In this document: positions 23,201-57,261 of the stretch, one piece after another
Numbering within the stretch: the first letter of the stretch is position 1
How the letters are laid out: each line of letters starts with the position of its first letter
IMG/VR virus record: IMGVR_UViG_3300020316_000005
Coordinates: 45,883 to 109,882 of that record
DNA: 64,000 bases
Direction: 5' to 3' (one strand)
Origin: a virus
Lineage: Duplodnaviria > Caudoviricetes
Notes under the pieces: generated by a model
The model's input: only the letters and a program-made list of their open reading frames with translations
Databases searched by the model: none
What the model was told of the DNA's origin: nothing
Made by a program: the position numbers and the translations under genes

Positions 23201-26200
23201 AAGTTAACGTCAACGTTATCAATGAAAGAATAGAATCTGGTGTTGGGCTTCAGACGCTGAATTGAAAATGCAATGTTTCTGGAGCGAATGAACGGAATCA
23301 CTGTTCTTTCGATCGTGTTATCACCCAGTGACTGACGGTCAACTCTAGGCACAACACGTGTTCTCAAACCAGTTCTAGTCTGGTTACGAATGTTAATGTT
23401 AACAGTTCTAGTAATTCTTCTAATAAATGGCCAGTTACCACGACGCATAAACTGAGAAGTTGTTCTAGAGGAGTTGGAAGACCAGTTGGTTCTCCAAGCA
23501 TTCCATTGAACAGGAGCAAAACCAGTGTTCTGGTCAGCACCAAGACGGAGCATAGTCGCTGTAAAGTCTCCTTCCAGGTTCACAACACGGTCAGGAGCAC
23601 GACGAGTATCCACCCAGTCATCAGAAGAGGGGAACAAGTCAAGACGACCGATGTATGCAAACACGTTGAACGGGTTGACGTTCTCAACACGGGATGCATA
23701 GGGTTGAACGATGAACTGAATCTGCTCATATGGAAGAGTCAGAGTTCCAGTTTCGTGCAGAGTAACACCAGTTGATGCTGTCTCGTTGAACTGCAACGGA
23801 ACGTTCGTAGTGTAGTGAGAAGGACGGAGTTCTCCTTTACCAAAGTCGATAGAGCAAGCAAAGTCTTGCTGAGTAGTATCAGCAGAATCAAATGATGTAA
23901 AGCTATCAACTAGGAATCCATTCTTGAACTTATCGAAACCATCACTATCCTTAACAGATGTGGTGCTAGTTTCAAGTTCAAGCAGACTCAAAGAGGTGTA
24001 ATATTCGAGGTTGTCAACACGTCTTTCGATGTGACCAATGTCACGCATTGTGAAACGACGATTGTTCTCTCTAACAATATGGACGTTCTCAGGTCCATAA
24101 CCATATGCTTCGTGATAGAAGGTTGCCAGAAGCATTGCATTATCAATGTCAGCAGGAATATCTTCCGACTCACCAGCAATACCTTTAACAATCTTAAATT
24201 CTTGCTGGTCAGTCAGGAACATCTTGTCGATTCTGCCAACAAAATAATCGTAGTCACAACGGAAATCGGATTCGGGTTTCGGAATATCGATAACCGTAGC
24301 GTTGTTTGCAACACCACCAGATGAGAAACCACGATCTTTGAAGTCCAAAGATGCACAGTTTACATAATACGGGCTACCAACAGTACCAGAACCAGATAGA
24401 ACAGGAGTAACAGCAGGTCTGAAATCAAGGACATCTCTAAGTTCACGGGTTTCACCTAAGATCTTAACTGAAGGAATATCCTTGTAGTTGATACCAACAT
24501 AAGATTGAGATGCAAAATAGTCACCCGTTGCTTCGTGGGTGAATCTATCAAACACAATCATCAACTTACGAAGTGGTTTGGTTGAACCAGCAAAACGAAT
24601 CATCTTAGAGATGTCGTAGAAATGACCTTGCTGGTTGGGATCAAGGAAGAATGTATCGGTAATATTTCTGGAACCGTTGTTAACAGAACCATCGGCGTCG
24701 TTAATCAGACCAGAAATGACATTACCATTAGCATCAAAACCACGGACAGTTTCACCCAGAGTGAAGAAGTTGTCATTCTCATAAACAAAGTGGCAGACAT
24801 AAGACACTGGGTTGAAGTTCACAACACGTGCTTTTGCCTTAGAAGTCAAACCTTCAATGATAGTACCCTTTTGGAAGATGGTTGCATCCTGCATCGTCAG
24901 ATGAGGAATTTGCGCTGCATTGTCATCCAGAGATTCATAAACAGCGTGAATCTTGTAAACGTCAGTAGAACCGAGAGAGATCTCATCATCTTCGATACGT
25001 GTTCCATACAAGGAACCATATGTCAGACCATACTTAACGTTATCAGAAGAGTTTGAAGTTCTTTCGACCTTCATCACTTCCATCTGGGTTGCGTTCTTAA
25101 GTTTCTTCTCCGCTTGGTTCTTGGAGACAGAAGCAATCAAACGACAGGTAGAGACACCAGACAGACCAGAGACGGTCAGAGATGTTCTAGGAGTACCAGT
25201 AGAGTTGAATGTAATATTGGATTCAATATCAATCAAAGTGCCTGCTGTAGGAGCAAGAGACACCAGTTGATAGTGATCCTTATCATATGCCAGGAACTGT
25301 TCGTCAGCAGGCAGAGAGATCGTAAAGTCATTTGCACCAGTAACAGTGATGTCATCAAAGGAACGTGCAACGATTGCAGATTCATCACTAATATTGTTGA
25401 TCGATTCCTTAGGCATCTCGATCATCAGATCAGCAGTCTCTTTGTCATAGACTTGAGCACGCTGTCTCACCAAGAATGCATAGTCACCAGCTGCCAGTCC
25501 GTTACCGCTGTAACTAGCAGTGGTTGCGTTAGTAATTTTGTTGTCAATATTTGTACTGACAGTGCTAATTAGATTGATTTGGAATGTATCAGTACCATTT
25601 GCAGTCAAGATGTCACCAGGACGAATGTCCAGAGTGAAGTTAGACTGTGTACCAGTCAATGTACCAGTAGCACCGCTGCTGCTGATGTTGAAGTTACTAC
25701 CAAGGATAAGTGTCTCACTATCCAAGATAAAGTCACCAGCAAATGTAATAGAGTTTGTGTCAGGGTCTCTACCAGTGATACCTTTAGCATCAGTAATCTC
25801 AAACGAGAACATATCGTTGAGTGTACCGATTTCAACTCCATCACGTTCAATAACTTCACCTGCACGGAAGTTACCATACACCTGATAGACATTAAACATC
25901 TGTCCACCAACAACATCTGCCTCAACAAATGCCTTTGCCTTGGAGCTACGACCACGAATAACGTGACCTTGGGACAGAGTAACAGCAGCATCCATCTTGA
26001 AGATGGTTAGTGGCTGAATATCAAACAGGTATGCTTTGAATACAGTTGAAGTGGAGTTTACATTAGTACCACTATGGTATTCATATGCTGCAACACGTGC
26101 TAGACCAATAACACGACCAGATGCGGTCAGAGCATTATTGGGTGCAACATCACGGAGCTCAACAACCTGATAGTTTGCAGTAATACCAGTACCATTGATG

Positions 26201-27420
26201 ATGGGAGAACCCTTCACGTTGTTCATCAGCATATAGTTGCCGAGTTCAAACGGAATAATCGAGTTCTGGAGACCAACAGTTGTTCTGGGTTTGATCAGGT
26301 CAACATATGTGGGTGCAAGAGTTTCAGACTCAAAACCACGGACATATGCTTTACCAGGACCAACCTCAACACAATAGTGTGCTTCAGAAGATTCAATACC
26401 ATCAGGTGAATTCACACCAGGCAGATAAACACCATCATTGACACCATCATTCTGGTGCTCTCTAACACGGATGTCAAAGTCACGAACGGTATAATCACCA
26501 GATTCGTCGTATGTTCTTCTAGCAAGTTCTCTTGCCAGTTCGTTATATGCGCTTCTCTCAACGAATGTCTCGATCTGAGACTTGTTAATTCTTAAAAGTT
26601 CGATGAAATTCTTATCAGTATCATCATCGATAACTTTTTTGACTAGACTGGTTCTAATTCTAAATCTATGAGCACCAGGTGCCGAATAGTTAGAAGTACC
26701 AGTAGCGTTATCGTTTAGACTCGGATCGTCTTCAGGAGTAACGATCGATTCAAAGATTTCTAGACCAACCCTATAAGAAGGATCGTTTGTATATTGATCA
26801 AGAATAATGGTCTGTTCGTCAACATCGACGAAGTAACCACGGATGAAGTACACACCCTTAGCAACAGATGCAGTCGAACCAACAGCAGTAGCATTAGTTG
26901 GGAGCAACTGAGAGAAAGGAGTTCCGATCTCAATCAGGGAGTTGCCATAAGTGATCTCATTATCACAAATCAACTGCTCGTTATTAACGAAAGTGTTGAT
27001 GTCACTATCATCACCACCAGAGGTCAGATACTTAAGATACAGTGTGATATATCCACGCTCAGAGGTAGCAGCAGGGATAGAGAACAAAACCTTTGCTCTA
27101 ACACCTGTTGTCAGACCTTCAATGATCTTACCATCGAGTTGTTGTCTATATTGCTCAACGTCAGAACCCAAGAAGGATTCCTGCAGCAGAACTGCCTTAG
27201 CGTCCAGATCGTAACCAATCTGACCAGGGATGACCATACTGCCATCCTTGAACATATGCGTACCAAACGATTCAATCTGATTCTGCATCAGAGATTGAAG
27301 CGTAGTCAGTTCACGCGCCTGAATGGGGTACCCAGGACGGAATAGCACTCGGTAAAAATTGTTCTCCTTATCGAAGTCGTCGAAATATGGAGAGATGTTC
27401 AGATTGGTATTCTGAGGCAT
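20206..27420 (-). CDS. VrlC-like / DUF4815 large virion structural protein (2404 aa)
   Basis: PYFDDFD...YRVLFRPG...QARELT start; APGAHR, ARRTYDESGDY, MRDIGHIERRVDNLEYYTSL and DPLAQSF motifs. Confidence 0.9.
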   Translation of the reverse strand: MPQNTNLNISPYFDDFDKENNFYRVLFRPGYPIQARELTTLQSLMQNQIESFGTHMFKDGSMVIPGQIGYDLDAKAVLLQESFLGSDVEQYRQQLDGKIIEGLTTGVRAKVLFSIPAATSERGYITLYLKYLTSGGDDSDINTFVNNEQLICDNEITYGNSLIEIGTPFSQLLPTNATAVGSTASVAKGVYFIRGYFVDVDEQTIILDQYTNDPSYRVGLEIFESIVTPEDDPSLNDNATGTSNYSAPGAHRFRIRTSLVKKVIDDDTDKNFIELLRINKSQIETFVERSAYNELARELARRTYDESGDYTVRDFDIRVREHQNDGVNDGVYLPGVNSPDGIESSEAHYCVEVGPGKAYVRGFESETLAPTYVDLIKPRTTVGLQNSIIPFELGNYMLMNNVKGSPIINGTGITANYQVVELRDVAPNNALTASGRVIGLARVAAYEYHSGTNVNSTSTVFKAYLFDIQPLTIFKMDAAVTLSQGHVIRGRSSKAKAFVEADVVGGQMFNVYQVYGNFRAGEVIERDGVEIGTLNDMFSFEITDAKGITGRDPDTNSITFAGDFILDSETLILGSNFNISSSGATGTLTGTQSNFTLDIRPGDILTANGTDTFQINLISTVSTNIDNKITNATTASYSGNGLAAGDYAFLVRQRAQVYDKETADLMIEMPKESINNISDESAIVARSFDDITVTGANDFTISLPADEQFLAYDKDHYQLVSLAPTAGTLIDIESNITFNSTGTPRTSLTVSGLSGVSTCRLIASVSKNQAEKKLKNATQMEVMKVERTSNSSDNVKYGLTYGSLYGTRIEDDEISLGSTDVYKIHAVYESLDDNAAQIPHLTMQDATIFQKGTIIEGLTSKAKARVVNFNPVSYVCHFVYENDNFFTLGETVRGFDANGNVISGLINDADGSVNNGSRNITDTFFLDPNQQGHFYDISKMIRFAGSTKPLRKLMIVFDRFTHEATGDYFASQSYVGINYKDIPSVKILGETRELRDVLDFRPAVTPVLSGSGTVGSPYYVNCASLDFKDRGFSSGGVANNATVIDIPKPESDFRCDYDYFVGRIDKMFLTDQQEFKIVKGIAGESEDIPADIDNAMLLATFYHEAYGYGPENVHIVRENNRRFTMRDIGHIERRVDNLEYYTSLSLLELETSTTSVKDSDGFDKFKNGFLVDSFTSFDSADTTQQDFACSIDFGKGELRPSHYTTNVPLQFNETASTGVTLHETGTLTLPYEQIQFIVQPYASRVENVNPFNVFAYIGRLDLFPSSDDWVDTRRAPDRVVNLEGDFTATMLRLGADQNTGFAPVQWNAWRTNWSSNSSRTTSQFMRRGNWPFIRRITRTVNINIRNQTRTGLRTRVVPRVDRQSLGDNTIERTVIPFIRSRNIAFSIQRLKPNTRFYSFIDNVDVNFYTTPKLIEVIKNPVDDVRTNDTPFVTGETVIGQTSGCRLILVDPNNGFDDGLSPYDKSELPSSYASTTPLLNINTKIMSETVQGDFYGNPIETEILVGQTSGARAVVKKKRLVANTNGDLQGIMWIPNPAVSTNPRFATGTRVIRLTTSANDSRIPGQVDSAANANYVASGILETKQQTILAVRNAELVRDTVTQNRTVDNSSTSTRDTGWYDPLAQSFLVESKGGAFLTGCDLYFNTRDEKIPVSVQVREMANGYPTTKVLAFSDTTLLPSQINLSENGTVATRFNFASPIYVTENREYCLVVLSDSNEYKLWISRMGEDDVTSDRTISEQPYAGVLFKSQNASTWTADQYEDLKFVLYKAEFTPNTTGTAVFNNAELALGNAGISQLRNNPIETLKPEIKVILSDHVANFTIGAEITQTDTSPVPSAIVREVVQGVQGSSNAYIILDDVQGSFREGVASGQNFIYRLVSSRSIANITLSGVTGTFQTDQSITNGQGASGIVTEWNSGTGVVTIKSVTGTFTAGDAVTQTIDSVTTGSGTIAAGGVATSGDDINDYPAAPISYFNKATEITVHHANHCMHDTANNVKIEGVISEVSPTIIDSAYHTNGITAADGVSGTFQLHVADASAFHTIINGQGVATSNPGYIIIRDPEVGQRHFEIIEYSNISDDGKIITLPSGSRGKAGTTALVHSSNSIVECYNLDGIPLTEINKLHTQIGAPTLDSYKLAVTSVSTNGINNGGFNVTATQNIQFEQFLPQIQMNNFPETDVIPRFNAVSATSIKDGANTDNASFINDGVYLDVIANEDNYLTFPKLVCSQVNEDAKLSGAKSLTMELLMSTENEAITPVIDTDRCSLITTSNRINELPQTSSDAEKNAGDKNDAVYITKQVNLLNAANTLKVQFEAWRHPDTEIYVMYRILPVGTSLAFDEIGYTYFNGNGKEDKTVQKTESYLLRDLEYSLESNAEFTAAQVKIIMTSKNQAYVPNIRNLRVMALSDL

Positions 27421-34530: not shown

Positions 34531-37500
34531 TTAGTTGTCGTCAAAGATCTGGTCTGAGGTGAATCCTGGGATCACGGTTGCACCGATATTGATCGTTAGG
34601 ACTGCAGAGTTGGAGAGCGTTGGAGTTGCGCCCGCTGCAGTGAGACCACATCTGAACTCGTCACCACCATCACCTTGAGTTGTAGCACTCGTAGTGTAAG
34701 TTGGGCTAGTTGCGCCTGGGATGTTAGTCCAGGAAGTTGTTCCATAGTCCTTCTTCTGCCACTGGTAAGCGATTGTACCGCCTGCAGGGTTAGTGGAAGC
34801 GACCACGGTGAACGATGCGGTTTGTCCTTGGTTGACAGTTGTGTTAACTGGTTGAGATTCGATGACGATTGCCTGTTCGCCCTGTGCCTCAGTTTCGCCA
34901 GGAGGAACGTAATTCGGATCGTAGATGTCAATACCACCGTTGAGAGGAGCACCAGTAGGTGCGAAGAAGTTGTCTGCAACAGTCGTGTTGACTGCAACGG
35001 TAGGTTGAACATAACCCTGACCTGCGTTCTTCACGTCAATGCGTGCGAGACCAACAAGTGCCTTAATGCGTGCACCAAAACCAGAGGAGGAAATCACATC
35101 AACCTGTGGGCGTGAACTGTAACCATCACCAGAGTTGGTAAGAATTGCCTTGGTAACGCGACCCTTTTCAATCTCTGCCAACGCTTGACCGTTACGACCG
35201 CGAACAGCGCCTGAGTATTCAAACGTGATCAGGGAGTTGGAAGATTCAATCAGAGCAACCTCTCTATTCTCGTCCTCACCTTCGATCTGCAGAATGTCAC
35301 CCGATTCGATCGGAGGAACGACGGTTGCCGCGATAACGTCAACGTCAGAACCGATGTAGGAGAAGGCAACGAAGGTCGAACCTGCGCGAGGAATCTCGGA
35401 GAAGATGATTCTAGAACCAACGATCTCGAAACCAATTCCAGGTTCCTGAATAACACCGTTCAACTGACAGATGATGTTATTCTCAGGTCTAATCGTGTTG
35501 GACTGAACACCTTCAGTCAGAGTCAGTGAGTAGAACACACCACCCAGTTTCAGGTTGAAGGAGTTCCTCAACGAGTCGAAGTCGAAGGAGATGTCATCCA
35601 ACTGTCTCAGTTTACCCACGTAGACGCCGTGGAACGTGGAGTTGATAGCAGGTGCTTCAGTGAACTGAATGTTGTCAGAGAATGCCGTGTAAGCGTTGTT
35701 ACCGCCAGGAGGTTGGAGGATACCATTCACGAAGATCATCATATGACCTGCGGGATCTGGGAAGTAAGGAGTTCCGTTCTCAGTGGTCAACTTGAAGTTC
35801 TGTTGAGAACCATCAAAACCACGGAAGAATCTCTTCACGCGCCCGCGTAAGTATTTCGCCCCACCACAAGCACCTTGGAATCCAAAGTCACCAATAATCT
35901 GAGAGTTCTTCTGGAATGTTCCCCTAGTATCTTCCAGGTGGATAATCAGACGAAGACCAACTTGTTCAATCTTCGCGACCTTACCATATGCAGAAGTCGG
36001 TGTGATTGTAACGTTAGAGATCGCGCTGGTGTAAACACTTGGGAAGTTAGAACCAGGAGGAATCTTGGCAAGTTGATATGCAGTATTGTTTGCAATAGCA
36101 GTCAGGTCATTACTCAAATCGTTAATGATACCAATGTATCTGTTCGTCTCGTTAGCGAGGTAAACGTGATTGTTATCAGTATCGTGCTCGGTAACCACGA
36201 AGGTGTGACCCACAGACTGACCTGCGTTTTGGAGTTGCAGCACGTCACCGACCTCGAATGTGTCTGTAACACCAGTATCAGTGGTCAAACTTGCATACGT
36301 GAAGCGTGTGATCTCTGTAGAGTGCAGATACTCACCAAATCCAGGAAGAATATTAAATCCTTCAATATCAATGATCTGATCGGTAACAGAACCGTAGATA
36401 ACATCTCTCTCCTTGAATTCGCCTTTGACAGTTTCGATGTCAAATGTAACGCGACCAAGTTGGTTAGCGGTAAGAGCACCGTCATTATTACGGACGATTA
36501 GTGCATTTGCCTTACCAGAATCTTCTTTGGAGTAAATGATGTCAGTTGCAATGAACTCACCCTTGTCGAAGTTGACCAGGATTCTATCGTCGGGAATACT
36601 TGTGATCGATGCTTGTGCACCGCTAGTAGTTCCCTCAATAACATCACCTTGCTGGAATTGACCACCATTGACGATGAGTTTGACGTAACCCGTACCAGTT
36701 GCTCCAGTAGAAGCGAGCAACGTTGAGGTATTTCCAGTAGCACCCTGAACAACCACAGTTTCACCAAGAGTGAAGAAGGTTTCAGTTGTGACATTAACTT
36801 CTGCGTGCTTAACCTTGTACATAACCTCTGCGAGGTTGTCCTGAATACGGATAACCTCACCGTATGCACCCGAAGAAGTGCCATAGAAGATGTCAGCAGG
36901 TTGAATACCACCAGTGATAGGAGTAGGAATGACACGATCACCATATGTAGTGGCAATTCTGTCAATACCGCTCTCACGCAAGCAGACGAGAGTGTGAATT
37001 TGACCTGCAGTTCCAGGTGTCAGACTTGTAATCTTGTGACCATCGATATATTCTGCCAACCAAATGGTATTTGCAGTCGTATCGGGGTGAATATAATATT
37101 GCGTGAATGTAAGTTCAGCAATATTGCTACCGAGAACTTGATAATTGACTCTATCGTATGCCTCAAACGGATGACCCGCAGCAGTGATAGAACCGTTGGT
37201 ATTGACTGCAACACCAGCGTCGAAGGACTGCTTAAGGATAACTGTCGGAGGAGTAGAACGCAGCAGAGCAGTCTGAATAAAATGATCAAGTTGATCGATC
37301 TTATGCTCAGCGTAAACAGTTGGGCGAAGTTCGCGATCCGTGTACGTGGGTTCCTGATTGTAAACACCAGGAGTAGTTGCTCTCTGACCAATGATTTCCT
37401 TACAGAAATCTTTAATTGCAGTTGCGTGATAGATCAAATAAGTTCTGAAGACGCCAGGGAATGCAATAAAGTTACCCTCAGCATCGAACCAAGAGTTAAC

Positions 37501-40500
37501 GAGTTGCAGGGTTGCAGCATTACCATCGGTGAGCAAGTCGTAAATGAATGCTTTACGGATAGCACTACCGTATGCTTCATCACCACCATAACCACTATAC
37601 TGCTGAGCAGTCTTGTAGTATGCCTCACGGTTGATGTAATTATCGTTGATAATGAGCAGACGTGCTGCCTGACGATACATCTCACCTGCTCTACCCAGAG
37701 TATCCTCAAGAAGATCGAAGAGAACATTGGAAGCAGATCTAACGTTGTAGCAAAGACCACCACCATTATTCAGAGTGTTACCAGTTGCCTTGGTGGTTCT
37801 AACGAGACCACTATTTGTCAACCAGTTGCCGCTACCTGCTGCAGCAGTTTCAACGACGTTGATCACGTAAGAGAACAGGGTGTCAATAGAAGCAGAAACC
37901 AGAGCACAGTCACCGTTACCTGCCATATCATAGGTAATATCGATGTCACGTCTGAGTGCACGCTCACCAGTAAGTGGCCACTCATCAGGAAGTGTTCTCG
38001 TCACACCATTCAGATAAGCCTGAGGGTTAGCAGTTTGCGTGAACAGGTTGATAGGAATACCCATCAGTGTTGTAACTGCTGCTGCCTCATTCTGGCAAGT
38101 AGGGTTAGCACTGTCAGTTGTGATTGTGCTGTCAATCGCTTGAGTTCCTTCTGTTGTACCGTTGGTTGTAACAGACTGATTTCTGAGAACCTCAATAGCA
38201 ATATCGCGTGCCTGTTCCATAATGTACTTGGTCTCAGTTGCCTGAGAAAGCACGTGAACAACTGCGTTAGCGTTGCTGATGTAGAACTCAGTTGCGTAGT
38301 ACATCTTGTTGTTGCCACCGTGCTTCAAGTTGAAGATCAGAGCATTCAGGATGTCAATAACGTCGTCAACACAGTTCTGATAACCACCAGGGATGACGAG
38401 AGAAGGATAGTTTGTGATGCCACGTCCAACTGCAGTTGTAGCAATGAATCTAAGGTTATTTTCAATGCTATTTGCAGAATCGTAGAAACCATTTGCAGTT
38501 GCATTGTTATCATAATCACCGCGAGGGACGCCACCGCCACCGCCGCCACCAAGAGCACCACCGCCTCCAGTGGACTCCTCGAAGGGATTAAACCCAAGCT
38601 TGTTGCGGATCGCGAGAATTGACATATCACGTGCCAACTTATAGGCGTGAACAGTCTCTGCAGATTGATTGGTAACGTGCTGCAGACCCATCTGAGTATC
38701 CAGATAGAGTGCAGATGCGTCGTAAGACTTCTCGTTTACTGTGAATCTGAGGTCGTGGCAGACTGCATTGATGTAATCAACCAGGTCATCTTCACAGTTG
38801 ACCTTACCACCAGGAACTTTGAATCCATTATGCTTAAACGCAGAGGTCTTCATAACCAGATCAACCGCTTCCTCAGCGATGATACGTGCATTTGCCTCTA
38901 GGATGTTTGCAGAATCAAGTGCACGATCGGTACCAGAGAAGATGTGGGGATCGGGAGGATAGAAAGTGCTCTCAGTAATTTCAGCACCATCAACACTGTA
39001 GTTGACAGCAGGATCGTAAACCTTTCTGTATGCGGGGAGGTCAGTGTACTGATACTGATAGAAATCGTTAATTGTTTGAGCGTTAGTTCCAGTCAGGTTA
39101 GCAATGTTCTCATTACGACCAACCAACAGGTTTTCCAGTGCTTTACCACACAGGAACTTCACATCTTCAAATGCATCCAGCATAGGAAGAAGTTCACCTT
39201 CAATGTAGTTGATGTCTTCTTGACTATCCAGGTAAGAATCGATAATACCTTGGATATTGGAGTTACCACCAGTAATCAAGTCACCAGCAACAGCAGGGAT
39301 AATGTGATCTCTGAGATCTCGGATGCACTTCTCTCTGTTGGGGATAGTGAGTTTGCTTTGCTGATAGAACGCAATGTTGACAAGCCATTTCTCTTCCAGC
39401 ATTGCCACTGCCTCATCAGCAATAGACTTACGGTTGAAGTAGAGAAGGTCAGCACCATCACGGAATCTGTGACCAGTTGGAGCAATAACATCCAACATAT
39501 TGTCAATCAGATCAGTAATAAAGGTTGTGATTTGAGAAGACGCTGGTGAAGAGAAGTAGTTGGGAACACGAATTCTGTCGGTATATTCACCAGTCAGATC
39601 ATCTTGGTTTGCAGTGATAACATCAATACAGATCTTACCAACTTCACGCCAGGTATAGATGGACTGGAGAAGTTCACCATTCACGTGCTTCAGAGCACCA
39701 GATCCTTCCAGGTATCCACGACCTGCAACGATAGTGTTGAAGTTGCCACCATAACGAAGATCGTTAATGATTGCGGGGATGATAAAGGAGTGAGTATCAC
39801 GGAGACACTTGTCGGTACCTGTAGTAGCGAGACCAACGTCTCCAGGAATAACAAAGTCAGGATACTTTGCCTTCATACGACCAACTGCTTCTTCTGCAAT
39901 CCAGAAGCGGTTCTTATCAATGATCTCAGCACATTCACGATAATCATCGCGAGAAACATCAACTTCCTCAGTCATAATCTCACTACGCCACAGTTCAACA
40001 CCGTCAGCAGTTGCAGAAGAGATTATGGTCTGACCATAAGTCGCGTAGATTGCAGTAGTTTCCATCGGGAACGGTTGACTACCGTTAAGACCGAATGTGA
40101 CATCAAGACCTTCGTATATTGTAGTGTATACGGTGGGGGGAGTAAAAGTAGAAGAATATGCAGCGGATTTTCTGATGACCATTTGGTCCAGATGTCCGTC
40201 ATAGGTTTCACCATTGTTCCAAGCAGCACCAACCTTGAACGCTGTATCGCCATAGTCGTTATTGTCGGTATAATCAGAACCGACTTGCGTACCGTTCACG
40301 AACATCTTAGTAACGTTCGATGCACGGGAAACAGCGATGTGATACCAGGTATCGATGGTTGTGATAGCACCAGTAGCAGTGATATGGTCACCAGCACCAG
40401 TACCATAACGGAGAGAGGTTCCACTCATAAAGATTGTTGGTGCAACGCTTGAAGATGTGGGACGAGCGTCGATAATTCTTTGAACACCAGTTACGCTGTC

Positions 40501-43500
40501 AGGGCGAATCCAAGCTTCAATAGTGAAGTCGGCAGTACCAAAATTGACTCTTTGGTCAGCAATCATATCAATTTTGCTACCAGATCCACTGAAATCAAGA
40601 GATCCAGGTCCAACACCAAATGTAATGTTGTCTACGGAGACGTTTGCATAGGTAATCTTGGAGTTGGTGATATACTCATTTCCAGAGAACGAACCAGTAA
40701 CACCCTTGGTGTAGATCCACTTGTTACCAGCATTTGTACCGATAATTTCGGCGGTAGCACCAGAGGTGATACCCTTCATCGTGTCACCGAAGTTGAAGAA
40801 TCCACCAGAAGACTTATTACTATAGTTGTGCTTGATAGAACGAATAGTTTCGTTATCTTCAAACGCATAAGGGGGTTCAACACGAGTAACATTACTGATA
40901 GACCACTGATAGGTTGCAGGATCTGCACCTGTAGGATCTTGCAAAGAATCTGTAATGATCTTAATAAAGTTGGTAACAGCAGATGTCTGACTCACGCAAG
41001 CAGTGCTGCTACCGATAGATGTTCTACCATCAGCATAGTTTGCTTGAGGTGCAGTCTTGGTATATGCTGCTTCAAATGCTGCCAAAGTTCCAGGAGATGC
41101 TGTAGTACCCAGAGCATTGATGGGAATATCCATCAGAGTTGTAATTGCAGCAGCAACTGCTTGACAAGTCGGGTTAGCAGGATCGGCAGTAATAGAAGTG
41201 TCAGTCACTTGGTTCCAACCGTGGGAACCTTGCTTAACAACAGCTTCGTTTCTCATAATGCTGATTGCCATCGCCTTTGCCTTGGTGAAGGCATTTACGG
41301 TGTCATCTTCATAGCCAGCAACGTGTGCACCTGCCATATAGTAACGAGTTGCATCGTAAACGAAATCATTACCACCGTGTGCCAAGTTATATGCCATCGA
41401 CTCAACCATATCCACGATGTCGGACAGGCAGTTAACATCTCCACCAGGAACTGTCAGAGATGGATTCTGCACCTTAGCGTAGTGCAGTGATTCGTGTGCG
41501 ATATACCACTTGTTAGCAAGGATCAGTGTACGAGCGTCAGCGTGACTGTTGCTAACAACTTCATATTCAGGAGTTAGAGTCAGATCCTTCCACTGAGTCA
41601 GATTTGTATACTCAGTATCAATATTCTCCATTCTGATGCACTTCAGAGCAAGATCTCTTGCTGCGTTCATTGCATAGATGGTTTGAGGAACTGCACCGTC
41701 AAGATGGTAGATTGCCTGGTTCTGGACATATGTGTTAGCAATATCCCAGATCTCAGAGTTGCCATCAAACTCAAGTTGCCAAGCAGCTGCGTTGATAACA
41801 TCAACGATGTCATCCATACAATCCTGATTACCACCAACACTATTGATACTAAAGGAGGGGTAGAAATTCAACATATCACCCACGGCTTCTTCAGCAATGA
41901 AGCGTGCATTCTTCACCAATGCGTCAGATGCGTTCTTAGCACGAGTATCAGTAACTTGCTTGAGAGAAGAGTTGCCGAAGTAAATCTTCTTCAATCTGAT
42001 ATTGGTTCCAGGTGCAAAATCGGTACCAGTCAGCTGATCGTAACGAATTTCTTGGTTGCGAACAGACTCAAAGTCAAGGAAATCTTGGTTATTAGGAGTC
42101 TCAAGATCATTGAGTTCTGTTGGGTTAATAACAGTTTCACCAATGTCGTCAAGAATGACGTTCGGGAATGTTGTTGAGGGAACTCTCTGGAAGACAAGAG
42201 CAAAGAACGAAGATGCAGGAGACAAATCAACCTGGTCAATAACCTGATTGCTAGTATCATCGGTATATGGAGCGATGACAGTAACAGTTGCGGCAATTTT
42301 AGATCTGGAAGAGTAGATAACATCGTTGAACTTGATGTTAAATTCACCAGTCTCAAACTTATCAGTACCAGAAGTACGAGAAACGACCAAATCAGTACCA
42401 ATAACACCACCAGACAAGTTATTTTCTTCAATAATTGCAAAGTCGCCCTTGAGGTTGGTGATTCTCTCACCTTGTTCAAAGATCGTCTTAGAAGTAACGG
42501 GGTTTACAGTTGCAAGAGTGGAGTTGAATCCAGTTGCACTACTCAGAATTTGTTCGTTGGTTTGGAATGTACCTTCAATATCAAAAACATCGATGTAGTC
42601 AACACCAGAATCAATAACAGTTGCGGTTGCCTCAGAAACAATACCTCTAACAGTATTACCAGTCAGCGGGAAGATACCACCAATATTGCTGAACGTTAAA
42701 CGGGTCAGAGAAATTTGAGAATATGTAAGTTCACGGAATTTAATTCTAGAAGGTGCCTTTGGAGGTTCAGAGAACACAATAGAAGGACCAGCAGTAGAGA
42801 ATGATTCTTGAGGTGCCTGTGCAACACCGTTAATCAACACAAACATCTGAGTTTCAGTTGCTGTGATAGATTCACCCTCAACATTCAGCGGGAACTGAGT
42901 TTTAATACCATTGAAGTCACCAGAAACATCATCGATCTTCTTAACGATAGAGGTTAGAATTTCCTCAGAGTTAGTAAGTCTCTTCTGTCTGAAAAGTACC
43001 TCAGTGTTATTGAACTGGGTATAGATCGGTTGTGCGTTAGCAAATGATGTAATTTCATTGATATTAGTGAAGGAGTTGATATTAACTTCCTTGATCAAGT
43101 CGGAAATAACTTTACGACCCGAAATATCCTTACCACCCGTGATTGCTAGTTCACCGAAGAGGTTGAAACCAACAGGGTGATTTGTTTCCAGAACAGACTT
43201 TCTCCAGTCGTTAATAGGTGTCTGAGACTTAATAACGTAAGAGAAGTTCTGATAGAAATAAGAATCTTGGATCTTCTGAACGATTTCGGAGGGTTTACCC
43301 ACGTCATCGATAAACTGACCAGGTGTATTAGTCAGAGATGCAATGTTCAGAGTACCGCGAGCAATAGACAGGTTATCAACCAAACCAGATGCACGAGACA
43401 CCTGACCAGTTACACGCTCACCTTCTTTCCAGATACCATCATAGTTTTCAAGTTTCAGGATACGAGGACCGATCTGCCAACCTTCGTTAGTAGAAACATA

Positions 43501-46500
43501 ACCAGTTGCAGATGCAAGTTCCAGCGAAGAACCCTGATAAACAAGTTCACCTTCAAGGAATCTGGAGGTTTCAACGATTGCAGTCGCTTGACCACCGAAC
43601 ACTTCGGTCAACAGAACCTGACGACCTTCACCTTGAGTCAAGAATGTGATGAAAGAACCAGATTCTGCATCAAGTTTGGTCAGTGCAATACGAAGTTGGT
43701 CGGATTCCAAAGAGTTTTGCTCACCAGCGATTGCATAGTAAGTCTGATTAGGGTTCAAGCTAACCAAACCTGCAGAACTCGGTTTCGGCAAAATACCAAC
43801 CGTAGAACCAAGATCTTCTGCTCTCAACTGCACTTCTGCACCAGTTGTGATGCCGTGCGGGAAGTTGAACTGCAAATAACCCAAGTCAACGTTGACAACG
43901 TAGTTAAATTCAGACTTCAGGGTAACAGTCGGTTCGGAAGAATAACCAGAACCAGGGTTTTTGATGATAACTTCAGAAAGTCTGTTGTTCTTGACGATTG
44001 CTTCTGCTTCTGCACCAGATCCACCGCCACCACTGATAACCACAGCAGGAACGGAGGTGTAACCAGAACCAGGATCGGTGATCTTGATTTCTGACAGAAT
44101 AGCGGTATTAAACAGTTGAAGGTTGACAGGGAAAGTAATTTCGGGTCTCAGAGTATAGTCGTGAGAATAACCGAAACCAAATTCGTTGTTCTTCAGCTTC
44201 TTAATCTTACCGATGCTCTTACCTTGCAGGAACACCGATGCACCCGAACCTTCATCAGGAATCACAACTTCAAGTTGTGCACCAGAACCTGCAAGCAGGG
44301 GTCCAAGGATGCCAGGAATAGCATCAACGTCGATAGATGCAGTTTTATATCCTTTACCAGCAGACGTGAGAGTGACATCGGTGATAACACCAGTGAAATC
44401 TCCATCATCCTGAACTGTAATGTTACAACTTGCACCTTCACCATCACCAGTAATAGGTACGTTGTAATAAATACCGTTCACATATTCAGTACCACCGTTG
44501 AGAATACGAACTTTTTCGATCTCTCTGTTCGATGCGATGTCTGTAACGATGGGAAGTTTCTGGTAGAAACCACCTGGGTTGACAAGCTTGATGCTTGCAA
44601 TAGGTCCAATCGCTTTTGGAGAGGTTGTAGAATAGAGGGAACGTGGGTTTCCAAACTCATTATTACCAACGGGAGCGATAGTCTTCTCAGGTTCAACGAG
44701 AAGTGGGAAATCGAAGGTAGTTCCTTGAGTTCCAGTTGCAGAAACTCTAAATCTACCAGAATAAGGACTCTGGATAACGTCAATAAAGGATCCTTCACCA
44801 ACAGGAGAGTCTGCTCCAGTTCTAGATGGATCAAAATAGTATGAAATGTTGGTAACAGAGTCTGTAACGATGAATTTAACCAACGGAGTAGGCGAATCAT
44901 CGTCAGTTAGACCAGGTGTACCCTCTCTAATGATGTTAATAAACGGATATTCCAGTTTGTACTGATTATCCTTAGAGAAAGACAGATAATAACCGAGGTT
45001 TGATGGATCATCCAGGTCAAAAATGTACTGGTGATAGCGAACAAACAGCAGTTTGGGGTGCTTGGCGTAGATATTGACGTTGGAAACAGAAGAACCTGTG
45101 CCTGAGAATGTGGGATCCTGAACAGCAGTTGCTCTCAAACGGAATGTAAACTCTCTAGAACTAAAGACTTCTTCAACAAAGAAGGATCCGTTGTAGTCAT
45201 TAGTGGCAAATCTCTCTGTAAAGATGATTTCATTTGCCTCAAAGTTGTGTCTGCTGTTAGCAGAGCAGTATACAAGGTCCGTATTTGCAAGAGCAGAAGC
45301 AGGAATAACGTCTTTGTCAAGTGTAGCAATCAAAGAGAACTTCTTGACACCGATCAATCCAGCAAATGTAGCAATCTTGCCAGTTGCATCAACAGTAAAT
45401 TGCAGGTTGACTGCATCTGCGTCAATGGTGTCGCCCTTAATAAAGGTGGAATCACCATAGATTTCTTCAATCTTAATAGTATAATCTTCTGCAGCAAATG
45501 CTCTCCACGAAGTAAACGCTCCCAGAGTGCTGCCATTGTAAGCAGTATTTGCCAGATCAACGTCGAAACTGCCAGAAACACTGGTGAAAGACCAGTTGAC
45601 ATTACCATCGGTCACAATACCAGTGGTGTGCTCTGGTTCCAAAGGACCAGAAACGCCTGTAGAAGTTGCAGTGTAAACCTTACCAGCATTGTAAACAACA
45701 TCACCAACAGTATATGAGAAGTTCTCAACCCATTGAGGTGTTGTAGTTTCAACAGTGAAGTTACGATCAAGAGTATTGATGTCACCTGCCGTTGACTTCA
45801 GGAGTTTTGTGGTGTCAAAGTTACCAATAATCTTACCGATCTTTGCATAGTTTGTTCCAGCTTCAACGATTGTTCCATATGCAGAAACAACATCGCTTCC
45901 ACCAATCACAGAATACTGCTGTAGGATAGAACCTTTAGTGAAAGATGCAGGTTGATTGAATGTAAGCGTCTTAACAAGGTCAATACTGTTATACTTTGCA
46001 TCACGCAAGTAGAACTTGGGAATGACAGTTGCAGAAAGTAGAAGCTTCGTACCACCCTGTGTAGGAATAGTTGCAGTTCTCTCACTATACTTCTCTGAAG
46101 TATCTGTAAATGTGTAGATACCAGGAACGTGAGTGGAGGTTACATCAGAATAATCAAGAATCTGAATACCTGCAGGACCAATAACCCAAGGATTGATAGT
46201 AACGGGTTGGGTATTAAACGTATAACCACTCTCAGCGGCGGTTACAAGAGTGTGACCTGTCTCAACATCATCAAGGTTAAAGGTGCCAAGTTTCGTCTTG
46301 TCCTTATCAATCTTGTAGAGGAATGCTTGAGTTGCGCTGTTTGTACCAGCAACAACTGCAGCGGTAAATGAATCGTTATATTTGAATGCTGGGGTGACAA
46401 CAAAGTTATCAACCCATCCCATCCAGGTATTGGTGGAATTCGGTGTGGATACAGGTCCAAGGGTTGCATCCTTAAGATTGACATCAACAGTTGTGCTCAA

Positions 46501-49500
46501 AGTTTCGAGAGCAAGTGTACCGTTAATGAAAACACGATAACGATAGTTACCAACACCAGGACGCTCCTTAGTGAATGCAACGTGAACGAAGCTTTCACCA
46601 TTGAACGCTGCACGATAAGTTGCTGCAGCAGAATATGTTGTGGATCCTCCAATATCAATAAACACCTTACCATTATTGGCATCTGATTGATCAGCAATAA
46701 GACCACACTTAACAGTGTTGCTCAGAGCATCAGAAACAGAGAAGAACTCAGGTTCAGTGTTATTTGCAGTGTAGGTAGCTGCAGGCATTGCGAAATAAGC
46801 TTCAGATGCCCACTCAGTTGCTACATCAGAACCATATTGAAGAACAAGTGAGTTGAAGTCTGTGATCTGAACAGAAGATGCACCATCTTGCTTTTTAGAA
46901 GTATCGATAGTTGCAAAGGCAGGATCATACCAAGCCTTGTTCGTACCAGTTTTCAGAGTGTCATTGTAAGTTTCATCAAGCAGATTATCGGCAGTGTTCC
47001 AGTTGAAGATTGCAAGTTGATCTGCTTCAACCTTATTACCGATAACAACTGTGTCGCCAGAGTTATCACTTGACAAGTCAACAGCGTGATAACCAATACC
47101 ACTACTCTCACTTGCAGAGGAAGCACTGATAATGTTGCCACTATTCCAAGAAATCTTCAGAGTTGTGGACTGAACATCATTAAATGCCTTAGTGACAGAG
47201 ACTCCAAGGTCAATGTTACCAAACACGTCGAACTTAATACCAGCATTGTGGCATCCATCATAGGTTCCAGTAGGAACATAAATCTTGTGCTCAACAGGTG
47301 TAGTGTAGTCATTATTATCAAACTTGACGTACAACACACCATAATTCTTGTCCTGAGCATTCACAGCAGTTGCTGCGACATATACAGCACCATATTCATC
47401 AATGGTGAAGGTGGGGTGCATAAACTTGTATGCGCCACTCTCAATTTTCTTTGCCCACTGCAGTTCAACAGTTGCAGTATCGTAGTAAGTTTCACCAAGA
47501 ATAATATCACTTGCACCAGCAGGATCAGAAATACCGATGAACATAAAGGTGTCATTGGATTTCCATTGGAGATCCACCAGATGCTCACTACCACTTTCAG
47601 AAGCAATCTTACGCTTCTCCATAATGGTGCCGTCAATATCCAGCAGTGCTACCCACATATCGTCGGGAGCAAGGGAGTTTGCATCGGTATAACCACCAAT
47701 CATCACCCTACCATCTTGATCTAGGGCAATAGATGATGCATAGTCACGTCTGGTGCTACCAGAGATACCAGCAATATCACGTTGCCACTGGATAATACCA
47801 TCAGGGTTGTTAGCATTATCGAAACCAGATCTATACTTAGCAACAACAACGTCAGGATTGTGTGTAAGGTTAACACTGTTGGGGACAGTCTCACCAACAA
47901 CATAGATGTTGTGGGGATTGCTGTTTTCAACATACAGTGCTTTCCATTCCAAACTCTTGGTCCCTGATGCGGGAACAGTTGGGAACAATGTACGCTGCCA
48001 GAGAAGACGACCATCGCTGTTGAACTTAGCGAGGATACCAGCGGTATCACCGTCAGACTTTACAGTTTTACCACAAACATAGATTGTCCTGTCATCTGCA
48101 ACTTTAACATCAGTGATAGTAGTTGTAGATGCATTTTCCTTCAAGAAGGACAGGAAGTAAGTTGCTTTCTTAAATCTCTGTGGGTGAGAGACACGAATTT
48201 GAGGGGGTTCGTCCTTATCGTATCCAGAACCAGAGTTAATAATATTAACAGTGTTAACAGCACCCGCTTCTGTTCTTGGGATGTCAATTCTAAAGTCTTG
48301 ACCAGTGGAAGAGATAACCTCATATGTGGGAGGTAGTTCTTCGGAGTAACCAGAACCAGCTTGAGTAACAGTAACAGATTCAACACCAGAGATGACCTTA
48401 ACCTTAAAGGTCTTGTTGGTATCGTCGATAATAGGTGTACTTTGGACGATAACTTCATCGCCAACACGCAATTCGTGCTCATCGGGAGTGGTGATACGTC
48501 CATAAGGAGTATCATTTGACATATAACTGGAATAACCAGAAATTGTCAGACCCTTAACAGCATCAACTTTTGCAGATGCACCGAAACCTTCAGTGCCCTC
48601 ATTATCAAAGTACAGTTTGTCACTGACTTTATAGGAGATACCAGGGTTCTCAATAACAAATCCGTCAACTTGAGCATCCTCAAACTTGGTAGTTGTTTCA
48701 ATGTCAATGTCAACTTCAGAACGAGTAGAAACTCTAGGATAGTAATCAAAGAGTTGCAGGACAGGTTCTTCAGCAATATTGATTGTTGCGGTAGATTCAT
48801 CACCATCAATGATACCGTTTCTGTTAGTATCTTCGATTTCAAAGATTAGATCAAGACCTTCTTCTGTAACAAGAGTATCGGTGTCTTGGTTGGGTTGACG
48901 GTCAATATCAATATCAACATCCTCATATGGATCACGGAAGCGAACCACATCTGCTGGGATATTAGTCTGAACAGCATTCTGAGAGTAGTTCCACTGATCG
49001 GGAGAAGAATACAGTTGAGGACCGCAAACATACGGGAAAACTGGATTACCGAAGTCAGATGCATCAATAGAAACAAAGTATGCATACACACCCTCGGGGA
49101 ACTGTGGTGTTTTACAGAAACGACCGTTATATTGGTCTAGATCGCCCTCTTGGAAGACATACTCATAGTCATCAATGAATGAACCCGCAGGATAGTCAGT
49201 GAGAAGTGGACCATCTGCACGCACAGGGTTTGGATTTGTTGCAGCATCATATACCAGTGCATCCTTAACCTTGTAAGAAGAACGGATTCTTCTAATGCCA
49301 GAAGACTGGTCGGTAGCATCGATATAACCATATGGACCATAAATCGGGTTACCATCAAATGCCCATCCAAGAATTGGGGAGTGAACATAACCAGTAGACA
49401 GTTCTTGGAGTTGACCAGTTGACTGATTTCTGAACACGTTGTCTCCAAGAACGTATCTCAGTTGCTTAGGATCGGAAACGTGTGCATATTCACCGCCATA

Positions 49501-52500
49501 TTGGGTGTTATATCCAGCAAACACGTAACCACGCGCTGCGTCAAAGTTCAGAGACAGTTCATCTTGAAGGTTACGAGTCCATTCAAAGACATTTGCAGAG
49601 AATTGTGCTTGCTCACCAATAGATTCAAGGCGGATGGTAGTCATTCCAGTGGAATAACCAATACCTCTGTTTACAACAGTAACGCCAATAACCTTACCTC
49701 TATCCTCACCAATGGTACCAATAGTTGCTCTAGCAACAGCACCATAACCATCACCATTGATAACAACTTCAGGTGCAGTGGTATATCCTCTACCAGCAGC
49801 AATGATAGCGATAGAAACGATACGACCATTGATAATAATTGGTTGTGCAACAGCACCTTCACCCGAATTCAGTTTAATTTCAGGAGATAGTGTGTACGAG
49901 CTACCAGAGTTGGTAACAGATACGGATTGAATCGGACCACGAACTGATGCTGTTGCAGTACAACCTGTTCCACCCCCACCAGAAACAGAAACGGTGGGTT
50001 GTGATGTATATCCTTGACCTGGCGATTCGACCAGAATTCTACTAACTACACCATTGGTAATAACAGCGGTAGCAGTAGCGCCGAATCCACCACCACCCAC
50101 GATAGAAACAAGAGGGCTGCTAGTGTAACCAGTACCGCCAGAAGTAACTTCGATTTCATAAAGAGATCCATTGACGACAACAGTTGCTGCACCACCAGAT
50201 CCACCGCCACCATTGACTTCAATGACTGGTGGAGATGCTGCGTCATAACCCTTACCAGGATTATCGATGGTGATACTCGTCACACCACCGAACTTAATCT
50301 TGCTATTGGATTTATAGGACCAAGCGGAAACGCCGTTAACCCAAGCACCAACAGGACCAAACTTGACATCTTCACGCTTAGAAACTGTGTTAATGACGCG
50401 AGGAATACGAATCAGTTTGCGCTGGTTACCAGGAAGCAGTGCAGATCCAAGGAAAGGACCAACCTCATAGTTGGGAATACCAGATGAAGCAATATATGAA
50501 TACTGCTCATTGAAGAAAGTGTTCTGGACGTTAGTGGTAAAGTCCTTAATAGCGATGTTGATACCGCTTTCTGAGGACTTACCTTTGTTCAGATCAACTG
50601 AAAGAAGGATATTACCTTGGGGAGCATTAGGTGCTGGTTGTGGAATATTGTATTCAAATACAGTATTGCTCAAACGAGATGTCACCAGGAATGTGCCGTT
50701 GAACACTGTTGGGTTTGCACCATAGATGGTAACAGAGTCACCAACCAACAAACCGTGGTTATTGGAGCAAGTAACAGTTGCAGTTTGGTTATTGAGACCA
50801 CCAGGGACAATACCAGTAACCTGAATCAGTTTCTTAACGTTGTACAACCAAGATGTGATTCTTTGATCGTCACTTGTAGAACCAAGAGACGCAACATTCA
50901 GTTTGTCACCAGGCAGATAGTAAGAACCTGTGTCGGAAAGAACCGTAGACTTAGCGTCTGCAATACCCAGAACGCGCAGTTTCAGTTCATTTGTCGCACC
51001 CCGATTGACATAAACAAAGACATCGGAGTAAATTTGCGTGCCAGCATCCCAATCTTCTACAACACCGTTCTTAGAACGAGTACATTCAATGAACTGGTTG
51101 AGTGTTTTTTCCTTATATTGAACAACTTCTTCATCATTGATACGGATTGTTCCGTTTCTTTCTGGCCAACCAATCGTAGAGTCAACCGTAATAATACTTT
51201 CTGTAGTGTCAAGTGCCTCAACCAGAGTCGTCTTATACGGAATAGAGAACTGACCTTGCAGAGTTTCTTCAGAAATTGCGAGTTCATACACGGTGCCTAC
51301 ACCAGTATTGATCGCAATCACGTTTTCAATCAGTGCAGATGCCGCGCCAACAGTCGTATCAACCGCATCTCGGTATTGGAACAACTGTGAATCCAGCAAA
51401 TCACGCGGATCACCACTCAAAAGTTCCGCACGAAGGACGGTATCGACGTTCCAAGTTGCGGCAGATGGTTTGATAACCTCATCTTTCGGGTATGAAACAT
51501 CAACATTCTCCGAGAACAGCATCTTGAACAGATACTGTGTGGAGATTTTCGTACCTTTTGAAGAGTAGAAGTCGCTGATCGTCTTAATGATCTGCGGAGC
51601 ATTTACTTTATTATAGTCAATTTCTGCATTTGGCAGATACTGATTGATATATCTACGATAAAGTTCCTTGGCAAACAGGTTGTCAAGGTTGTGAATAGTC
51701 GAACCAACAGCGTGAGAAGACTGAATTGTGTCGGACTCTTTGCTGTAAATTTGGTTTCCTTTCTGAGAATACGCTGAAACAGCGGAAACACCACGCTTAC
51801 AATTTACAAAAGCAGAGGGTTGATAACCAGATCCAGCGTTATGAATAGTGAAACCAGTAATTTCACCAAAACCAACATCACAAGATGCCTCAGGTGCAGG
51901 AGGTGCAGCGATGAAAACCTTTGGAGGTTCAGTATCGGAGTAACCCTCACCGAAACTGGTAATGTTGATGTCGGTGATTTCACCGTTAAAGATGGTAGCA
52001 ACTGCTGTTGCACCAGTACCACCAATAGGATTATTAGCAACGTCTTTGCGGTTATCGACGATATACACAGAAGGTGCATCGGTATAACCTTTACCACCAG
52101 TCAACAGTTCGATGTTGGTGACTCTGCCACCAGTAACATTCACATCGAGAATCTGTGCGCCAACAGGATCAATGATTTTTGCTCTAGGAACAGTTTCGTA
52201 TCCTTGACCACCACTGAGAACTTCAATTCTGTCGAGTCTACCGTCAGCATCGAGGTGTGCCATAACGGATGCAACGATTGCATTTGAACCCGTTGGAGGA
52301 TCGATGTATACGAGAGGAGCAGTAGTATATCCACCACCACGATCAACAACAGTGAAAGAATCTGCATCGATTCTTCCATCTGTCAAAGTGGGACCACTGA
52401 TGATTGCACCACCAGGATTCGTGAACTTAATAGAAGGAATTCTGTCATATCCAGAACCAGAAGACAGAACATTCAGCTGAACGACACCTTCAATGTCATC

Positions 52501-56727: not shown

Positions 56728-57261
56728 TTAGCAGGAAAGCACATTAGGAGATCCGTATGCAATAACACTTGAACAAGGGTAACTTGCGCCAGGTGCTCCG
56801 ATTCCAAGCGGATCAAGCATTCGTGCAATGGGAACTTTGAATGCATACACACTCATTGTTGTTGCTTCCGCAAGTCTAGCGTGTCCGACACCTCCCATAT
56901 CCTCCACAGAGAGCATACTACAAGTCGTAGGAGTGGGAATGATACACATTGCCTTACCACAAGGGCAAGAGTAGTTAATAATATTGGTACCAAACGATGT
57001 ATGTGGTGTAAACATATCACCGAAAATCATAATCGGGAGGAAGTTCACAAGAACTGTCGCTCTCAATGGGTTGATTGCAGTCAATGGGATCAGTGGCATT
57101 GGTGGCCACATACAAGTCTTATCCTTCACAATAATACTGAGAGGGATAGGTGGTGTACCACAAGACTGCCACATATGAATAGTCGCAGGAATCGGAATAC
57201 CGTGTCCAGAGCAAGGCAATCCATTGATTGAGGCTACTGGTTTGTTAATTCCTAATGCCAT
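56728..57261 (-). CDS. PAAR-like spike tip protein (gp5.4-like), extended
   Basis: CSGHG, TVLVN.LP....GD....H, GH, V.....PIAR..D and C...IA.GSPNV follow the PAAR repeat pattern. Confidence 0.75.
   Translation of the reverse strand: MALGINKPVASINGLPCSGHGIPIPATIHMWQSCGTPPIPLSIIVKDKTCMWPPMPLIPLTAINPLRATVLVNFLPIMIFGDMFTPHTSFGTNIINYSCPCGKAMCIIPTPTTCSMLSVEDMGGVGHARLAEATTMSVYAFKVPIARMLDPLGIGAPGASYPCSSVIAYGSPNVLSC

Follow-up and report, generated by a model that had tools for sequence, protein, structure and literature searches.

Why does a phage virion protein contain a series of domains that resemble phycobiliproteins (PBPs), the antenna proteins of photosynthetic hosts, and do such domains carry bilin pigments? 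The question is raised by a stretch of 64,000 nucleotides from a virus of the Caudoviricetes (IMG/VR record IMGVR_UViG_3300020316_000005, positions 45,883 to 109,882; the whole stretch is called the window, and all nucleotide coordinates refer to it), in which a minus-strand open reading frame (ORF) of 19,143 bases (34531-53673) encodes a giant virion protein of 6380 amino acids (aa). A reading of the sequence by a model without database searches (the original prediction) had described in this protein six intact PBP-like repeats and one degenerate, Cys-less repeat; the peptides it quoted are all found in the translation of 34531-53673 (minus strand), the nine Cys codons it listed are exactly placed, and the same seven repeats were recovered independently by profile hidden Markov model (HMM). 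According to the analyses described here, the repeats are very probably PBP-derived domains with a conserved attachment site, located in a baseplate protein and confined to cyanophages.

For detection of the repeat units, a unit profile HMM was run on the six-frame translation of the whole window, counting matches to E<=10. Exactly seven matches were obtained, all inside the giant ORF (37330-41955), with zero matches outside it in any of the six frames; given seven matches in one ORF and none elsewhere in the window, the array is not a chance result. The six intact units matched strongly (E 1e-29 to 1e-40), the seventh, degenerate unit with E 8e-15. The units are arranged pairwise (1-2, 3-4, 5-6), and 19 related IMG/VR contigs keep the same layout of six or seven units. 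The array comprises the following features, residue numbers being those of the giant protein:

41560-41955, minus strand: unit 1, PBP-fold domain, with Cys3952 (41818-41820) in the motif CMDD (hmmsearch E 7e-40; six-unit alignment)
41164-41559, minus strand: unit 2, beta-like, with Cys4082 (41428-41430) in CLSD and Cys4170 (41164-41166) in 'NPTC' (hmmsearch E 5e-39)
41113-41163, minus strand: helix-H-like helix capped by Cys4170 (homology to the high-confidence model of the unit 6 helix)
40996-40998, minus strand: Cys4226, capping a further helix after unit 2 (homology to the unit 6 region)
39553-39957, minus strand: unit 3, with Cys4623 (39805-39807) in canonical KCLRD, matching PF00502 on its own (Pfam, AlphaFold 2, VIA-align)
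39055-39477, minus strand: unit 4, with Cys4783 (39325-39327) in KCIRD (hmmsearch E 2e-32)
38596-38931, minus strand: unit 5, with Cys4960 (38794-38796) in CEDD, followed by a Gly-rich linker (hmmsearch E 1e-29, profile positions 4-111 only)
38095-38502, minus strand: unit 6, beta-like, with Cys5101 (38371-38373) in CVDD and Cys5193 (38095-38097) in 'NPTC' (hmmsearch E 1e-40; AlphaFold 2)
38044-38094, minus strand: helix H of unit 6, beginning right after Cys5193 (AlphaFold 2 model residues 145-161, confidence 82-97)
37687-37908, minus strand: two extra Cys-capped helices, with Cys5256 in 'GDC' (37906-37908) and Cys5308 (37750-37752), resembling PBP beta helix H
37330-37686, minus strand: unit 7, degenerate, with Cys replaced by Ala and the Asp at +3 by Lys (hmmsearch E 8e-15; translation)

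Between units 5 and 6 (about 38515-38580, minus strand), the Gly-rich linker is followed by P-R-G-D, the RGD of which is kept in the orthologue L003.

Sequence relationships were assessed at increasing profile depth. A MAFFT alignment of 141-residue pieces around the six Cys residues displays the common elements N..fIAEEAV, yP.l.vPGG, C.DD and L..GGN together with an invariant Tyr, and the repeat around these Cys residues is, as judged from this alignment, real. The repeat region matches PF00502 (Phycobilisome protein) with E 1.2e-8 and 35.5 bits (cut-off 22.2); unit 3 alone lies just above this cut-off (22.5 bits, profile positions 33-84), and the other five intact units, searched singly, lie below it. 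Weak matches of single units to FliL, Alfin and DUF4867, all under their own cut-offs, were dropped. A phmmer search with unit 3 against all PDB sequences yielded 29 weak matches, 26 of which are PBPs or fluorescent proteins engineered from PBPs, and these place the phage Cys on Cys81/84. With a profile of the six units, 53 of 53 PDB matches were PBPs (best E 8.5e-4). For a more diverse profile, 520 distinct units were gathered from about 177 cyanophage loci in three single-protein scans, and 108 of them, with mutual identity <70%, were used; the best E fell to 6.9e-6, and among the matches listed 60 of 60 were PBPs, in a constant register in which profile positions 6-69 correspond to PBP residues about 33-103, with the Cys on Cys84, R-D on Arg86-Asp87 and G-G on Gly100-101. 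As the match strengthens with a more diverse profile and stays in one family, we consider it true remote homology. Identity of the phage units to PBPs is only 10-24%, and among the phage units themselves only 20-30%.

Structures were predicted with AlphaFold 2 (AF2) for unit 3, a target that ended before the last helix, and for a second target consisting of unit 6 and the 140 following residues, and were compared with 48,161 representative chains using VIA-align and additionally with Foldseek. The model of unit 3, based on an alignment of phage units, has five helices with a core predicted local distance difference test score (pLDDT) >90, and the unit 6 construct is confident over residues 11-180 (pLDDT 85-97). 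In VIA-align, unit 3 is closest to ApcB (Z 12.4, 113 aa aligned, root-mean-square deviation (rmsd) 3.8), followed by far-red allophycocyanin, the bilin domain of ApcE, phycoerythrin beta and phycoerythrin alpha; ranks 1-5 and 7-9 are PBPs, with generic globins and globin sensors lower (Z about 6-8). Unit 6 is closest to phycoerythrin beta (Z 15.5, 153 aa, chain residues 22-184, rmsd 4.4), in an alignment that takes in helix H and extends as far as the C-terminus of the PBP chains, its top eight matches all being PBPs (Z 11.9-15.5) and globin sensors coming next at about 10.7. Foldseek returned about 50 top entries for unit 3, all of them PBPs with E near 0.1, and for unit 6 PBP chains only, nearly all beta subunits, with E from 1e-3. 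A look-alike search of the ESM Atlas with unit 6 gave scores <=0.85, to clusters without names. PBPs thus lead for both models in both programs, in agreement with the globin-like PBP fold that had been proposed for the repeats.

Profile and structural alignments alike begin at PBP residue about 18-34: the X-Y hairpin is absent, helix A being the first of each unit, and the direct junction of units 1 and 2 leaves no space for it. With the hairpin missing and the domains covalently concatenated, assembly of the units into (alpha-beta)3 discs or phycobilisome rods is unlikely. In three orthologues (L003, positions 4900-6480; L004; L013), a beta-rich insertion of about 530 residues lies between helices G and H of unit 6, which shows that this domain, like that of ApcE, can accept nesting. 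The insertion holds repeated '...FTCDxDGN...YPRP' motifs and constitutes a domain nested in a PBP-fold domain.

Compared with the known PBP subunits (CpcA/B, ApcA/B, CpeA/B), the phage units share the globin-like helices A-H, with helix B, the 'PGG' loop and helix E in register. PBPs are free subunits of 160-180 aa, whereas the phage domains are concatenated in a 6380-aa virion protein, have no X-Y hairpin and hence no canonical alpha/beta monomer or (alpha-beta)3 ring, and often carry Asp in place of Arg86. The bilin-binding PB domain of ApcE (VIA-align Z 11.7 for unit 3 and 13.5 for unit 6, the latter with rmsd 2.1 over 117 aa) likewise places a PBP fold inside a large multidomain protein and tolerates a large loop insertion; ApcE, however, is a cellular antenna anchor with one PB domain where the phage baseplate protein has seven, and its insertion is the PB loop, whereas that of the phage orthologues sits between helices G and H. 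The bilin domain of photocobilins (PDB 8j2y, 8j2w) is also a globin-like bilin-binding light input in a non-antenna protein, in that case a cellular photoreceptor and not a virion protein; it scores below PBPs (Z 9.8-10.8) and has no match at the sequence level.

The residues that hold bilin in PBPs were followed through the family. Equivalents of Cys84 and Asp87 are present in 6 of 6 intact units of the window, that of Arg86 in units 3 and 4 only. Over the 520 units, the Cys is kept in 91%, the Asp at +3 in 96% and the Arg at +2 in 54%, with Asp in place of Arg in 26%; D-L..G-G-N and a Tyr are also among the most conserved columns. Asp(+3) occurs in 474 of 474 Cys-bearing and in 26 of 46 Cys-less units (Fisher p 9e-24, which overstates independence as the units are related): Cys and Asp(+3) are lost together, also in unit 7 of the window. 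About 40% of the units have a second Cys 87-102 residues downstream, in contexts like D-P...P-G/T-x-C. In a profile of 40 two-Cys units, this second Cys falls on the 'PGDC' Cys153/155 of phycocyanin beta, the stretch alone not being significant. Units 2 and 6 are of the two-Cys type, Cys4170 and Cys5193 aligning on beta-Cys155, where helix H begins. Two more Cys-capped helices follow unit 6 and one more, with Cys4226, follows unit 2; distant cyanophage lineages share their motifs, which in the alignment look like helix H of PBP beta subunits, the AF2 confidence of those after unit 6 being low (pLDDT 35-59). These extra amphipathic helices may represent displaced H helices of neighbouring units. 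The original assignment of the main Cys residues to Cys84 is borne out by the PDB profile searches, and that of the 'PTC' Cys residues of units 2 and 6 to beta-Cys155 holds as well. For the 'GDC' Cys (37906-37908), the helix-H-like motif is present, but it belongs to a second copy of the Cys-capped helix, the placement of which is left unsettled by AF2.

The distribution of the units was determined in phage genomes and in metagenomic proteins. A tblastn search with unit 3 found matches in 349 of 50,697 phage records, which, one 'Marine' record apart, bear the name Synechococcus, Prochlorococcus or 'Cyanophage'; a 22-unit library protein as the query retrieved 415 phage records, nearly all cyanophages. 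The single Pelagibacter record among the 415 was rejected as a unit match on the strength of a profile search, which detected 0 units in the SAR11 phage HTVC008M, assigned to the same virus family by NCBI. Against 1.84 billion representative proteins, the unit profile matched 1552 proteins at E<=0.001, with up to 36 matched stretches each; a 23-unit protein of this library (P0002) sits in a T4-like baseplate context, and one of the ten top matches, labelled 'Nanopelagicaceae MAG' and located on a contig of 2-5 kilobases, is taken to be a mis-binned phage fragment. S-SKS1, which NCBI taxonomy places outside the Kyanoviridae, has a single unit that keeps both Cys residues in an ORF of 928 aa (NC_020851.1, 17352-17792, minus strand, locus L199). 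The original prediction had named as a refutation that such repeats be equally common in phages of non-photosynthetic hosts lacking bilin genes; with nearly all matches in cyanophages and none in HTVC008M, this is not the distribution found.

The surroundings of the array, within and beyond the giant protein, are as follows:

34531-53673, minus strand: gene of the giant 6380-aa virion protein, occupying the T4 gp7 position within the baseplate module (translation, neighbours, PHROG)
40171-40554, minus strand: Concanavalin/LamG-like domain separating unit pair 1-2 from pair 3-4 (Pfam PF13385, E 7e-18, 65.7 bits)
53703-55784, minus strand: next gene upstream of the giant ORF, gp6-like (PHROG 219 'baseplate wedge subunit', E 5e-193)
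56728-57261, minus strand: PAAR-repeat protein, two genes upstream of the giant ORF (PHROG 281, E 1e-21), presumably a gp5.4-like spike tip
20206-27420, minus strand: further giant structural gene, 2404 aa (PHROG 358), without a PBP-like unit
13929-19694, minus strand: further giant structural gene, 1921 aa (PHROG 697), without a PBP-like unit

The latter two genes lie downstream of the giant ORF together with gp8- and gp10-like wedge and connector genes; with gp6-like and PAAR genes upstream and gp8- and gp10-like genes downstream, the giant ORF occupies the slot of T4 gp7. The protein itself matches PHROG 701 and 18802, both 'virion structural protein', and the PHROG families matching it bear only the names 'virion structural protein' or 'tail fiber'; the PF23786 baseplate-wedge family matches weakly (E 0.0016, 18.4 bits, under the cut-off of 27). 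Its relatives are annotated as 'gp7 baseplate wedge initiator' in P-SSM4 and P-HM1, as 'structural protein, putative fiber' in Syn9 (gp101) and as 'short tail fiber' in ACG-2014i. Like T4 gp7, the giant gene directly follows the gp6-like wedge gene and has a virion structural annotation; it differs in encoding 6380 aa with seven PBP-fold domains and in having only a sub-threshold baseplate-wedge match. T4 gp7 has about 1000 aa, and we know of no PBP-like domain described in it. In its N-terminal third the giant protein contains a YHYH domain (PF14240, E 4e-30; 49060-49605, minus strand; residues 1357-1538), and about 49700-52800 (minus strand; residues about 300-620 and 1130-1330) its translation displays many short tandem repeats of about 35-45 residues, with G-x-G-Y as the final motif of each (such as GGSGY, GSGYD, GGGYT, GQGYE). 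A megablast search of the region against the 50,697 phage records gave no match; the phage of the window is known from metagenomes only, and the nearest isolate at the protein level is P-RSM6, with 53% identity.

For co-occurrence with pigment-related genes, 21 named genomes were searched with the unit profile and 20 of them also with PF06206 (CpeT) and PF05996 (bilin reductase), P-SSP7 being searched for units only. Units and CpeT occur together in 15 genomes (S-PM2, P-HM1, P-HM2, S-ShM2, S-SM1, P-RSM4, Syn33, Syn19, Syn1, S-SSM5, P-SSM7, P-SSM4, S-RSM4, Syn9, ACG-2014i) and are both absent from four (HTVC008M, P-SSM2, S-SM2, S-SSM7); CpeT without units was found in 0 of 20 genomes, and P-SSP7 has 0 units. 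CpeT is thus present in 15 of 16 unit-bearing and in 0 of 4 unit-less genomes (Fisher p about 0.001, calculated by hand). In ACG-2014i, S-PM2, Syn1 and S-RSM4, a full-length cpeT lies directly upstream of the unit-rich fibre gene. Bilin reductase was rejected as a general partner of the units, being present in 5 of 16 unit-bearing and 2 of 4 unit-less genomes; within the unit-bearing group it is found in 5 of 5 isolated on Prochlorococcus and 0 of 11 isolated on Synechococcus. A test of co-occurrence with pebS, pcyA, ho1 and cpeT had been suggested; co-occurrence is seen for cpeT and not for the other three. The window had been described as free of bilin synthesis and lyase genes, and this extends to the whole contig of 109,882 bases (estimated completeness about 62%), in which PF05996, PF06206 and PF01126 gave no match. 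Two near-complete relatives of the window's lineage both have a reductase, one with and one without CpeT.

Adsorption data from cultured phages bear on a possible role of light. Darkness prevents the adsorption of P-HM1 and P-HM2 but not that of P-SSM2 (Liu et al. 2019, PMC6628666); adsorption of P-SSP7 is not stimulated by light and occurs in the dark, and light-dependent adsorption, which is also cited as a phenomenon elsewhere (PMC2984593), has been ascribed to changes, of unknown nature, in tail fibres or receptors (PMC6628666). In this small sample of two lineages versus two, P-HM1 and P-HM2 have 6 units each and P-SSM2 and P-SSP7 have 0. S-PM2 has 13 units. This phage reportedly served Jia and co-workers in 2010 as the model for light-dependent adsorption.

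From these observations, a captured phycobiliprotein gene has probably been multiplied in tandem and become part of the outer baseplate of a T4-like cyanomyovirus, giving rise to seven PBP-fold domains (helices A to H, no X-Y hairpin) in a baseplate or fibre protein in the gp7 slot. At least some units would be chromophorylated as virions are assembled in the cytoplasm of the host, which is rich in pigment; host S/U-type lyases, or autocatalysis as in ApcE, would load the Cys84-like site, and CpeT, a T-type lyase homologue encoded by the phage itself, the Cys155-like site; baseplate bilins would then be a possible light input to adsorption. ApcE attaches its own bilin autocatalytically and is therefore a precedent for lyase-free loading. 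We give bilin attachment to the units somewhat less than an even chance, and favour it because ligand-contacting residues are constrained and lost together, a second, beta-type site is present and there is a link to cpeT; which lyase attaches the bilin, and what light does, we infer. The most far-reaching form, in which the baseplates of most T4-like cyanophages carry covalently attached bilins on these domains, partly loaded by the phage's CpeT, as a virion photoreceptor that gates adsorption or baseplate triggering by light, is rather unlikely. Several observations speak against pigment or its proposed role, which we consider to be weakened by frequent Arg86 loss, the absence of any report of pigment and exceptions of both kinds. 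In the window, four of the six intact units have Asp or Ser for the propionate-binding Arg86 (CMDD, CLSD, CEDD, CVDD), and family-wide 25% of the Cys-bearing units are of the 'DD' type. With the X-Y hairpin, canonical alpha/beta and trimer assembly is missing too. S-SKS1 has its two-Cys unit without CpeT, and the close relative G001 (94% complete) has units but no CpeT match; conversely, P-SSM2 and S-SSM7 have bilin reductases without units, so the units are not the sole reason for phage bilin genes. As the genomes without units come from no more than two to four lineages, the correlations with CpeT and with light rest on few independent events. On the structural side, the individual Foldseek E-values are weak (0.1 for unit 3, 1e-3 for unit 6), and VIA-align Z-scores of 12-15 are within reach of helical bundles by chance arrangement; such scores alone are not decisive for a helical domain, and become so together with the sequence profiles. 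We know of no report of a cyanophage virion that is coloured or fluoresces.

Other explanations were weighed against the same evidence. That the units are helical repeats which merely resemble the helix B - loop - helix E part of PBPs, by chance or convergence, would fit the facts that a single unit passes the Pfam cut-off alone, and marginally, and that the significant sequence match is limited to PBP residues about 33-103; it is very improbable given that the best E falls from 8.5e-4 to 6.9e-6 as the phage profile diversifies, that all listed PDB matches are PBPs in one register, and that template-free prediction yields the complete globin fold of PBPs, helix H included, with PBPs ranked first. 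A greater, if still doubtful, possibility is that the captured fold serves as a rigid helical block of the baseplate periphery or fibre without pigment, Cys and Asp being kept for folding or unit packing. Phage fibres commonly recruit foreign folds, a protein may have as few as 1 or as many as 36 units, orthologues hold other domains in the stretch joining helices G and H, the X-Y hairpin is absent, and Arg86 is lost in four of the six units in the window and in about 40% of Cys-bearing units overall, all of which such a block would accommodate. It would not account for two ligand-contacting residues of PBPs ranking among the most conserved columns despite 20-30% identity and being lost together, nor for the second, beta-155-like Cys in its 'DP...P-x-x-C' context in about 40% of units, and it does not predict the co-occurrence and synteny with cpeT. 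The conserved Cys may alternatively have another chemistry: disulfides could join units or subunits and so lock the baseplate outside the cell, or the Cys could bind a metal or other ligand together with Asp (Asp-Asp in 'DD' units). Virions are extracellular, where conserved Cys residues often form disulfides, the units are paired (1-2, 3-4, 5-6) with up to three Cys-capped helices following a pair, and the CxDD variant sets two acidic residues beside the Cys; yet no conserved partner Cys exists within the unit, the extra last-helix Cys is found in three of the six units of the window and is not a conserved column, and the Cys84 and Cys155 sites are far apart in PBP structures, so that we regard this chemistry as improbable. 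Antenna mimicry inside the cell was set aside, as a baseplate protein in the gp7 slot is not expected to enter the host; nothing was found that supports it.

The substrate of phage CpeT and the purpose of cyanophage bilin genes have been called unresolved or a mystery (PMC3037559), and in the literature searched we found no published description of these cyanophage baseplate domains. Three questions, 15 to 20 years old, meet at this locus: the substrate of CpeT, the presence of bilin synthesis genes especially in Prochlorococcus phages, and light-dependent adsorption. If true, the virion-photoreceptor mechanism would by itself explain phage cpeT, the bilin reductases of Prochlorococcus phages and adsorption in the light only, and an array of PBP-fold domains that tracks cpeT makes all three questions cheaply testable in cultured phages such as S-PM2, P-HM2 and Syn9. 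Should pigment be present, these would be, to our knowledge, the first reported virions with a photoreceptor chromophore; should it be absent, the array would still show clearly how a virus has taken over an antenna protein of its host and turned it into a structural part of its particle.

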